Under the pieces are notes generated by a model. The model saw nothing but the letters and a program-made list of their open reading frames with translations, ran no database searches and had not been told where the DNA came from. Positions 14,466-15,767 of a stretch of 64,000 nucleotides of DNA are shown one piece after another. The position numbers and the translations under genes are program-made. Positions within the stretch are counted from its first letter, which is position 1, and the number at the start of each line of letters is the position of its first letter. The DNA is from an uncultured archaeon (lineage in GTDB: Archaea > Asgardarchaeota > Lokiarchaeia > Sigyniarchaeales > SOKP01): the NCBI GenBank assembly GCA_964388035.1, contig CAYLZE010000011.1, positions 1-64,000 of the forward strand, given 5' to 3'.

Positions 14466-15767
14466 ATGTCCATTAATTATAAGCAAATTTTACTTAATCT
14501 AAAAAAGGAATTACCTTACTTGAATGAACTTGCTATAATTAAGAACGATTTTAACATAATTTACTCCACGGAAAAGTGGAATAATGAAAGTTTTTCTCAA
14601 TTCGTTTCTGATTGGTCTGCAACAAAAATACAAGATCTTACTTTTAATGGAATTAATTTTAAAAAGATTACTTCTACTTCAGATAGAATTATAGCATTAA
14701 ATCAAGAAGAGGGTTATCTTGTGGGCGTTAAGGACCGTAATTGGTTCATCATCGCCCAGATAGAATCTGATGGTATCATACCTTTTACCATAACCGAATT
14801 ATCGAGGTTGTTAGCAAGCTTACGTTTAAATAAACCACTTATAATTCGAGAAAAGCTGCTTAAAGAGAAAGATATAGAAAATGAAGATAAATTAAAAACT
14901 TTAAAAACAAAAGATAATCAAAAATCTATTAACAAAAATAATACCGGAATTGTGCCATTTAGTGCTCGTTTGATGGCCTATTATCGAAGTTTGGAAATAA
15001 ATAGGAAAAATTCACTCATCATCGATCCCTTGGCAACACGACTTGCTGGCGATTTAAAATCCTATTTTAAAAAGCATATTCGCTATTCTGAAATGGATTA
15101 TCCTATCGTTCGTTCCTACTTTATTGAAAATGCACTACTGACACCATGGTGTAGAGAAAAAGAAAGTTCTCAAATAATGCTTTTAGGAGCCGGATTAGAT
15201 ACCCGCGCATATCGATTTAAACCTTTAGAATTAAATAATCATGCGATTTTTGAACTTGATTTTCCCCAAATAATAACCTATAAAGAATCGGTATTATTCG
15301 AGGAACAACCTTTGTGCTCGCTTAAAAGGATTCCAGCGGATTTAACAACAGAAGAATGGCTCCCCCTTCTAAAGGAATCAGGTTTTTCTAAAAATTTACC
15401 CACAATCTGGATATTAGAGGGCCTTGTATATTATATTGAATTGCATCTTTGCATAAAATTACTTCAAAATATAACTCGTTTGAGTAATGAGGAAAGCCAA
15501 ATCTTTATAGATCTAATGCAACTTTCCCGATGGTTGAAATCAGATGATTATCTTTATTTGAATTCTTCTGATACTATTAATGGACACTTTAGATGGGGGA
15601 TGGATATAAAGGATGTCGCAAGATTCTTTTGGGATATTGGATGGGATGTCAAATGTGATTTTGCTGATGAGTACGATCAAGGTCGAGATGTGGGACAAAA
15701 AGCAATGGTATTCGTTCATGGAAAGCTTAAATCTCATGTGGAATGTGAAGAAAGATATAAAAAATAA
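14466..15767 (+). CDS. Profilin-like domain fused to LCM-family SAM-dependent methyltransferase
   Basis: C-terminal part has ARLMAYYRSLE, DPLA..LAG, LGAGLDTRAYR, FELD, WILEGLVYY. The N-terminal ~120 aa fits the Asgard profilin pattern (AII...IIYSTEKW...FNGINF....TSDRIIA.N...GYLVG). Confidence 0.8.
   Translation: MSINYKQILLNLKKELPYLNELAIIKNDFNIIYSTEKWNNESFSQFVSDWSATKIQDLTFNGINFKKITSTSDRIIALNQEEGYLVGVKDRNWFIIAQIESDGIIPFTITELSRLLASLRLNKPLIIREKLLKEKDIENEDKLKTLKTKDNQKSINKNNTGIVPFSARLMAYYRSLEINRKNSLIIDPLATRLAGDLKSYFKKHIRYSEMDYPIVRSYFIENALLTPWCREKESSQIMLLGAGLDTRAYRFKPLELNNHAIFELDFPQIITYKESVLFEEQPLCSLKRIPADLTTEEWLPLLKESGFSKNLPTIWILEGLVYYIELHLCIKLLQNITRLSNEESQIFIDLMQLSRWLKSDDYLYLNSSDTINGHFRWGMDIKDVARFFWDIGWDVKCDFADEYDQGRDVGQKAMVFVHGKLKSHVECEERYKK

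Follow-up and report, generated by a model that had tools for sequence, protein, structure and literature searches.

Analysis of the first 64,000 nucleotides of contig CAYLZE010000011.1 (assembly GCA_964388035.1), from an uncultured archaeon of the Lokiarchaeia (hereafter the window), revealed a gene at 14466..15767 (+) whose product, P0001, is a cytosolic two-module enzyme in which a profilin-family domain is connected by a predicted disordered linker to an intact OPCMT-like methyltransferase. The reading that we put forward, with about even confidence, is that the profilin module has been repurposed as an adaptor or regulator placed on a carboxyl O-methyltransferase with the chemistry of its small-molecule-type relatives. 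Few of the eukaryote-like proteins of Asgard archaea have proven biochemistry; profilins are among them, and so far they have been regarded as actin regulators that act as stand-alone proteins. Within one Loki-type family, the profilin fold also serves as a module attached to an enzyme. No description of a profilin–methyltransferase fusion was found in the literature searched, nor any paper in which a profilin domain is paired with a carboxyl methyltransferase.

Architecture and recurrence of the fusion

P0001 is 433 residues long and is encoded in one uninterrupted frame from an ATG start with no internal stop codon; gaps of 196 bp and 93 bp lie between it and its upstream and downstream neighbours, respectively. 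The profilin-family domain (residues 1–125; 14466..14840, +) was delimited by profile matches to PDB entries, an AlphaFold2 model and Foldseek, and the SAM (S-adenosylmethionine)-dependent carboxyl O-methyltransferase domain, which is OPCMT-like (LCM-fold, TIGR00027; residues 164–430; 14955..15755, +), by PF04072, TIGR00027 and the landmarks of the Mycobacterium leprae enzyme ML2640c. The full-length model contains two confident domains, and between them a linker (residues 126–163, LIIREKLLKEKDIENEDKLKTLKTKDNQKSINKNNTGI; 14841..14954, +) with a pLDDT (predicted local distance difference test) score of <50 for residues 129–161. This linker is charged and K/E/N-rich, as are those of the fused family in general (24–51 residues, median 36). 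A charged linker between the domains had been described in an initial annotation of this DNA, and it was confirmed here as a predicted disordered segment.

A search of a 5.8-billion-protein collection gave >60 full-length homologues of P0001 at 42–51% identity on independent contigs of ENA, JGI, NCBI and Logan assemblies, mostly labelled as Promethearchaeota. With a hidden Markov model (HMM) of the N-terminal domain, this domain was detected in 63 of the 120 nearest homologues of the methyltransferase, at the N-terminus every time, and both halves were under purifying selection across these 63 fused homologues. We also surveyed 301 genomes of the phylum, in which the organism's own family was represented by the window's genome and 68 others. 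The fusion was carried by the window's genome and about ten others of the family (~11 of 69), together with one genome of a sister family of the same class, and the full-length architecture was not found in the remaining ~230 Asgard genomes searched with P0001 as the query. The fusion is therefore neither a chance product nor a chimera, since 63 homologues at such identity lie on independent contigs; it is lineage-restricted, patchy and conserved.

The initial annotation had named an assembly artefact as its own possible undoing. An assembly or gene-calling error, or a decaying gene, by which two separate genes appear wrongly joined, could be suspected from the draft state of the genome (211 contigs, 7% contamination) and from the few copies of the fusion that are split by a frameshift inside the linker. 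However, the continuous frame of P0001, the selection acting on both halves and the presence of the same architecture in about 12 genomes stand against it, and recurrence in assemblies of independent origin effectively refutes this explanation, leaving it a negligible probability.

A profilin fold joined to an OPCMT-like enzyme

The first ~145 residues alone matched no Pfam or NCBIfam model, and a family profile was needed to place them. PF00235 did not reach E = 1 on the P0001 copy alone and gave sub-threshold matches to close relatives of the domain, and the best match of the single sequence in PDB was weak (5zza chain P, E 0.52). A profile of 42 homologous N-terminal domains (A2), by comparison, matched the solved Asgard profilins of Odin (5zza_P, E 3.8e-12), Loki (profilin-1, 5yed/5yee, 1.3e-8; profilin-2, 5zzb, 2.5e-8) and Thor (7pbh, 6e-8). 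AlphaFold2 modelling on A2 gave a pLDDT of 91 and a pTM (predicted template modelling score) of 0.84, with helices at residues 5–15, 40–51 and 105–120 and strands at 19–26, 30–34, 57–60, 63–70, 74–79, 83–90 and 93–99, that is, a helix, two β-strands, a short central helix, a three-strand motif, two further β-strands and a C-terminal helix. When the model was compared with PDB using Foldseek, the top five matches were Loki and Odin profilins with template modelling (TM) scores of 0.71–0.78, led by LokiProfilin2/actin, OdinProfilin/actin and LokiProfilin1, and followed by about thirty eukaryotic profilins. The roadblock homodimer of Prometheoarchaeum (9jq8) ranked 11th with a TM score of 0.47 and a root mean square deviation of 8.5 Å, and no GAF or PAS entry was among the matches listed.

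Profilins differ from roadblock and longin domains in that a three-strand motif, which mediates actin binding, takes the place of half of the central helix (PMC10933270). This motif is present in P0001 (residues 57–79; 14634..14702, +), since the model shows the short helix 40–51 followed by three strands (57–60, 63–70 and 74–79). The N-terminal domain is thus a true profilin-family domain by both sequence and fold, as the initial annotation had suggested for a Loki-type profilin, and the objection that it might be closer to a roadblock, GAF or PAS fold fails once the domain is compared with structures of Loki profilins. Trp38, Trp50, an xKY motif and the GHIVG core are common to the solved Asgard profilins and the fused domains. 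However, the solved profilins (5ZZA, 5YED/5YEE, 5ZZB and 7PBH) are single-domain proteins of 120–145 residues, whereas the P0001 domain is joined to an enzyme and lacks the long loop of Loki profilin. Instead of a stand-alone protein of about 115–150 residues, it forms the N-terminal third of a 433-residue protein.

The second module matched the Pfam LCM family PF04072 over residues 169–336 (E 2.5e-29; 103 bits against a cut-off of 22.3) and NCBIfam TIGR00027 over residues 167–403 (136.7 bits against a cut-off of 93.55; model positions 4–252 of 259). SAM-binding motif I, LGAGLDTRAYR (residues 240–250; 15183..15215, +), aligned to LASGLDSRAYR of ML2640c. The complete LCM-family methyltransferase of the initial annotation is therefore present. 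Its closest PDB entries by profile were ML2640 of M. leprae (3.7e-21) and Rv0731c of M. tuberculosis (1.6e-19), with LCMT1 (2.6e-9), PPM1 (8e-5) and TYW4 further behind, and Foldseek ranked these relatives in the same order (best E 1.5e-16). ML2640c, Rv0731c and the MnMT enzymes are OPCMT-like small-molecule carboxyl methyltransferases (PMC10193983). By sequence and structure, then, the enzyme is an LCM-fold member of the OPCMT-like/TIGR00027 branch and not of the LCMT1 branch. The parallel with LCMT1 drawn in the initial annotation holds for the common PF04072 fold but not for the closest branch.

In ML2640c, Thr20 and Tyr/Phe194 hold the substrate carboxylate, and SAM is bound by Arg28, Arg90, Ala113-Ser114-Gly115, Asp135, Asp164-Leu165 and Glu189-Gly190 (PMC10193983). 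We mapped these residues through a HMMER alignment to ML2640, in which the chain index was checked to be offset by 3 from the published numbering. Thr20 corresponds to Ser166 of P0001 (Thr in 61 of the 63 fused members) and Tyr194 to Tyr323 (Tyr in all 63), whereas the SAM-binding residues correspond to Arg174, Arg216 (through the Rv0731c alignment), Gly241-Ala242-Gly243, Asp265, Asp292-Leu293 and Glu318-Gly319, respectively. All of the landmarks other than residue 166 are invariant or nearly so across the fused family. The methyltransferase thus looks catalytically competent, with carboxyl O-methylation as its predicted chemistry.

The characterized OPCMT-like enzymes (ML2640c, 2UYQ/2CKD; Rv0731c, 6ID6; MnMT2-6; PMC10193983) are the best matches for residues 164–430 and have in common with P0001 the SAM-binding residues and the Thr/Tyr pair that holds the carboxylate (Ser166 in P0001), at only 20–24% identity. 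They are actinobacterial, monomeric, single-domain proteins of about 300 residues, whereas the clade of P0001 is archaeal and Asgard-specific and P0001 carries an extra N-terminal domain of a protein-interaction type. LCMT1 and PPM1 (3IEI, 3P71 and 1RJD), which methylate the C-terminus of PP2A, belong to the same PF04072 family and fold, also perform carboxyl O-methylation and provide a precedent for a protein C-terminal carboxylate as the substrate, but the match of P0001 to LCMT1 (E 2.6e-9, 15–17% identity) centres on the SAM motifs, and nothing pointed to the lid of LCMT1 or to a PP2A-type substrate, for which no search was made.

The closest non-profilin relatives of the catalytic domain (50–59% identity) were all Asgard proteins and took three forms: a bare enzyme of ~270 residues, an enzyme with a conserved domain of ~190 residues at its N-terminus, and one with that same domain at its C-terminus. 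The window's genome itself has a fused copy and, on contig C195, a bare copy of the same methyltransferase clade. The catalytic landmarks did not differ between members fused to profilin (63), bare members (20) and members fused to the other domain (37), in all of which Gly241 and Gly243 were invariant, indicating that the accessory domain is exchangeable and that the chemistry is probably shared. Judged from these sequences, the substrate chemistry is probably common to the bare and fused relatives, which argues that the appended domain supplies localization, partner choice or regulation.

The ~190-residue domain (P0068-P0120; A3/A4) is fused in genomes of the Thor, Heimdall, Hod and Hermod types and has the pattern ...ISPRLLRDPL...EAHVVGYLKAILQLxYC...GWQF.... 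It had no Pfam match, no PDB relative (best E 6.2) and no usable Atlas match, showed no profile similarity to profilin (hhalign probability 2.5%) and was absent from the window's genome.

The profilin surface and the role of the module

We compared 42 methyltransferase-linked domains with a further 24 profilin-like domains that stand alone, carry extensions or are fused to other effectors, scoring each structural element separately. Strand 3 (residues 74–79) and β6 (residues 83–90, GHIVGxKD) were well conserved in the fused family (0.79 and 0.80) and came closest of all elements to the other profilins (cross-group BLOSUM scores of 2.6 and 3.1), and Trp38 and Trp50 occurred in both groups. Strand 2 differed, with Arg68 in 35 of the 42 fused domains in place of the Leu of the others, and the Gln69 of the others was lost in the fused family. 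Leu16-Pro17-Phe18 and a stretch running I99-E100-P-D102-G103-I-I105-P-F107 to E111 were near-invariant in the fused family, Asp102 and Glu111 being fully invariant. The latter stretch forms a patch over the β7–αC loop and the start of the C-terminal helix (residues 99–111; 14760..14798, +), with the family consensus IEPDGIIPFxxxE and IESDGIIPFTITE in P0001. Conservation scores for the loop and for the initial half of the helix were 0.85 and 0.71 in the fused family compared with 0.48 and 0.36 in the others, and the helix segment had a cross-group BLOSUM score of only 0.09. Thus the fused domains are near-invariant (LPF16-18, R68, IEPDGIIPF, E111) where the stand-alone profilins are variable. 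Two short candidates for stand-alone proteins with the fusion-type patch grouped with the fused clade and were frameshift-split fusions, and the patch therefore occurs only where a methyltransferase is attached.

In human profilin, the β7–αC loop and the start of the C-terminal helix are actin contacts (PMC8410842). An inspection of the actin-interface residues, which the initial annotation had proposed, gave a divided answer, as the core formed by strand 3 and β6 is conserved but strand 2 and the start of the C-terminal helix are remodelled. Judged by sequence, the patch may represent an actin interface that has been retuned, a face on which the methyltransferase docks or the binding site of some other ligand.

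The use of profilin-like domains as modules is not confined to this enzyme. An exhaustive HMMER search of 1.84 billion cluster representatives with the N-terminal domain found only 27 relatives, including fusions to TrmB-HTH (helix–turn–helix) domains (P0125-P0127 and P0130), SIR2 (P0129) and Ras (P0133) and forms of about 170–260 residues with C-terminal extensions. In these fusions the profilin-like domain is attached to an effector as a module at the N- or C-terminus, and the fusions and a ~205-residue paralogue matched the domain profile with E values of 1e-19 to 1e-36. In a maximum-likelihood tree, the methyltransferase-linked domains were separated from all others by a split supported at 99/95. 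On the other side were these fusions, which have no patch, as well as the 133-residue canonical profilin of the window's genome (L003:1489-1890) and its 206-residue paralogue on contig C31 (L002:1258-1878, −), likewise without the patch. These results suggest that the profilin-like fold is a general plug-in module in Asgard archaea. A G-actin-sensing regulator is one possible role for the TrmB-HTH fusions and their like, and the TrmB-HTH, SIR2 and Ras fusions accord no less with a generic adaptor or sensor, the alternative raised in the initial annotation, than with actin targeting. The ~205-residue protein, in which an Odin-like profilin domain (YVEPDGDMRTAY) is followed by a C-terminal extension of ~75 residues, is found in most genomes of the family beside the 133-residue canonical profilin.

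In the repurposed-module reading, the enzyme would make a methyl ester from a carboxylate by the same chemistry as its bare and other-domain-fused relatives, and the profilin module would recruit or regulate it through the remodelled surface (LPF16-18, R68, IEPDGIIPF99-107 and E111) rather than act as a plain binder of actin monomers. Candidates for the partner of this surface are the methyltransferase itself, a carrier of the substrate and, still, actin. Several observations weigh against such a reading. The actin-binding core of strand 3 and β6 is kept and is nearest to the Odin and Loki profilins that were crystallized with actin, so that actin binding may be retained given the conserved profilin core. 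The patch sits where profilins touch actin and could be a tuned actin interface and not a new one. Moreover, P0001 is a divergent member of the family, with the changes K64N, Y65F, R68I, H84Y and T166S at otherwise conserved positions.

These points lead to an alternative that we regard as tentative, with a probability well short of even, in which the profilin domain would still dock on Lokiactin monomers or barbed ends and tether or direct the enzyme there. Through the linker, the enzyme would then work on actin itself, for example on the C-terminal carboxylate beside the profilin site by analogy with LCMT1 and the tail of PP2A, or on something held at actin. This is consistent with the homology to profilins proven to bind actin, including that of Odin (5ZZA, E 3.8e-12), with the presence of the three-strand motif and the high conservation of its third strand and of β6, and with the position of the most conserved loop of the domain at the β7–αC actin contact of profilin (PMC8410842), as well as with the inclusion in the LCM fold of LCMT1, a protein C-terminal carboxyl methyltransferase, and the four actin-family genes of the window's genome. 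However, the enzyme is far nearer to the OPCMT branch of small-molecule enzymes than it is to LCMT1, and its active site is identical in bare and other-domain-fused relatives. Strand 2 and the first half of the C-terminal helix are unlike those of stand-alone profilins (Arg68 versus Leu; 0.09), the fusion is present in about 16% of the genomes of one family though actin is universal there, and no cytoskeletal genes lie nearby. That actin itself is the methyl acceptor we consider unlikely. Doubtful, too, is a cytoskeletal-modification writer, as the initial annotation had envisaged, in which the profilin domain would sit at Lokiactin's barbed face, adjacent to the C-terminus of actin, and the enzyme would, by the same analogy, esterify the C-terminal carboxylate or a nearby acidic side chain; if true, methyl-esterification of actin would tune polymerization in a subset of Lokiarchaeia.

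A further explanation, which we find improbable, is a CAAX-like pathway for the processing of protein C-termini, in which the enzyme would cooperate with Rce1-like proteases, ICMT-like proteins and small GTPases and a GTPase would be docked by the profilin/roadblock-like fold. Rce1-like genes stand beside the homologues P0010 and P0021, an ICMT/PEMT-like gene and an Arf/Ras GTPase lie around P0057, a related profilin-like domain is joined to a Ras domain, and the gene downstream of P0001 in the window resembles the geranylgeranyl-reductase family, though its 88 bits are below the cut-off. Yet these neighbours occur in only two to three of the nine contexts, which were picked post hoc, and their arrangement varies between loci. 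With 26 Rce1-like genes in a genome, proximity to one of them is only mildly above chance, no Rce1-like, ICMT-like or GTPase neighbour is present in the window, and the N-terminal domain is a profilin and not a roadblock domain by sequence and fold.

Should the module still bind actin, P0001 would, to our knowledge, be the first candidate for an enzyme linking covalent modification with the actin system of archaea. Should it not, as the repurposed-module reading would have it, the fusion documents the recruitment of an actin-binding fold for other jobs before or alongside eukaryogenesis.

Neighbouring genes and inserts in the Lokiactin gene

We examined nine distinct gene neighbourhoods of the fusion. 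No gene was common to them, a conserved cytoskeletal neighbourhood was not found in any of the nine, and a conserved operon was rejected, as Rce1-like, ICMT-like or Ras neighbours occurred in two to three contexts only. One Rce1-like gene lies 2 bp downstream of P0010 and another ~650 bp upstream of P0021, and P0057 is flanked by an ICMT/PEMT-like membrane methyltransferase and an Arf/Ras GTPase; the coordinates of these Rce1-like, ICMT/PEMT-like and GTPase neighbours are L013:9259-10002, L020:4542-5351, L015:6900-7775 and L015:9529-10041.

The gene upstream of the fusion (window:11450-14269, +) encodes a protein of 939 residues with an N-terminal SIR2_2 domain (E 1.6e-13) and C-terminal TPR repeats, which has weak similarity to the Thoeris ThsA SIR2 models in PADLOC (E 2.4e-8) and is possibly, judged by these domains, a defence protein or an NAD (nicotinamide adenine dinucleotide)-consuming sensor. 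No link between this gene and the fusion was seen in other genomes, and the fusion itself had no match in PADLOC to anti-phage defence. The downstream gene (window:15861-17081, +) encodes a flavin adenine dinucleotide-dependent oxidoreductase that scored 88 bits against the geranylgeranyl reductase family TIGR02032 (cut-off 158.8).

The main Lokiactin gene of the same genome (P0148, 413 residues; contig C5, L004:1474-2715) lies outside the window. Apart from two hairpin-rich inserts close to the 3′ end of the gene, its product is 98% identical to a homologue whose gene is uninterrupted. The first (L004:2570-2602) is 33 nt long, in frame, and adds ETERDQRISRR; the second (L004:2633-2663) is 31 nt long and shifts the frame, displacing the universal IHRCF* end, which is still encoded directly downstream of it. 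Neither insert is present in a genome of the same genus, and at the site of the first, a genome from a different genus (G301, L039) carries a frame-breaking insert of 31 nt and of different sequence. A canonical bulge–helix–bulge fold was not found for the inserts, and only the first can adopt a relaxed form, consisting of an exon–exon helix, a 3-nt bulge, a 4-bp helix and a hairpin. We found no paper describing these inserts, which may be candidate mini-introns of an mRNA removed by the splicing endonuclease. Removal of both would restore ...TRREYKEMGPQVIHRCF.

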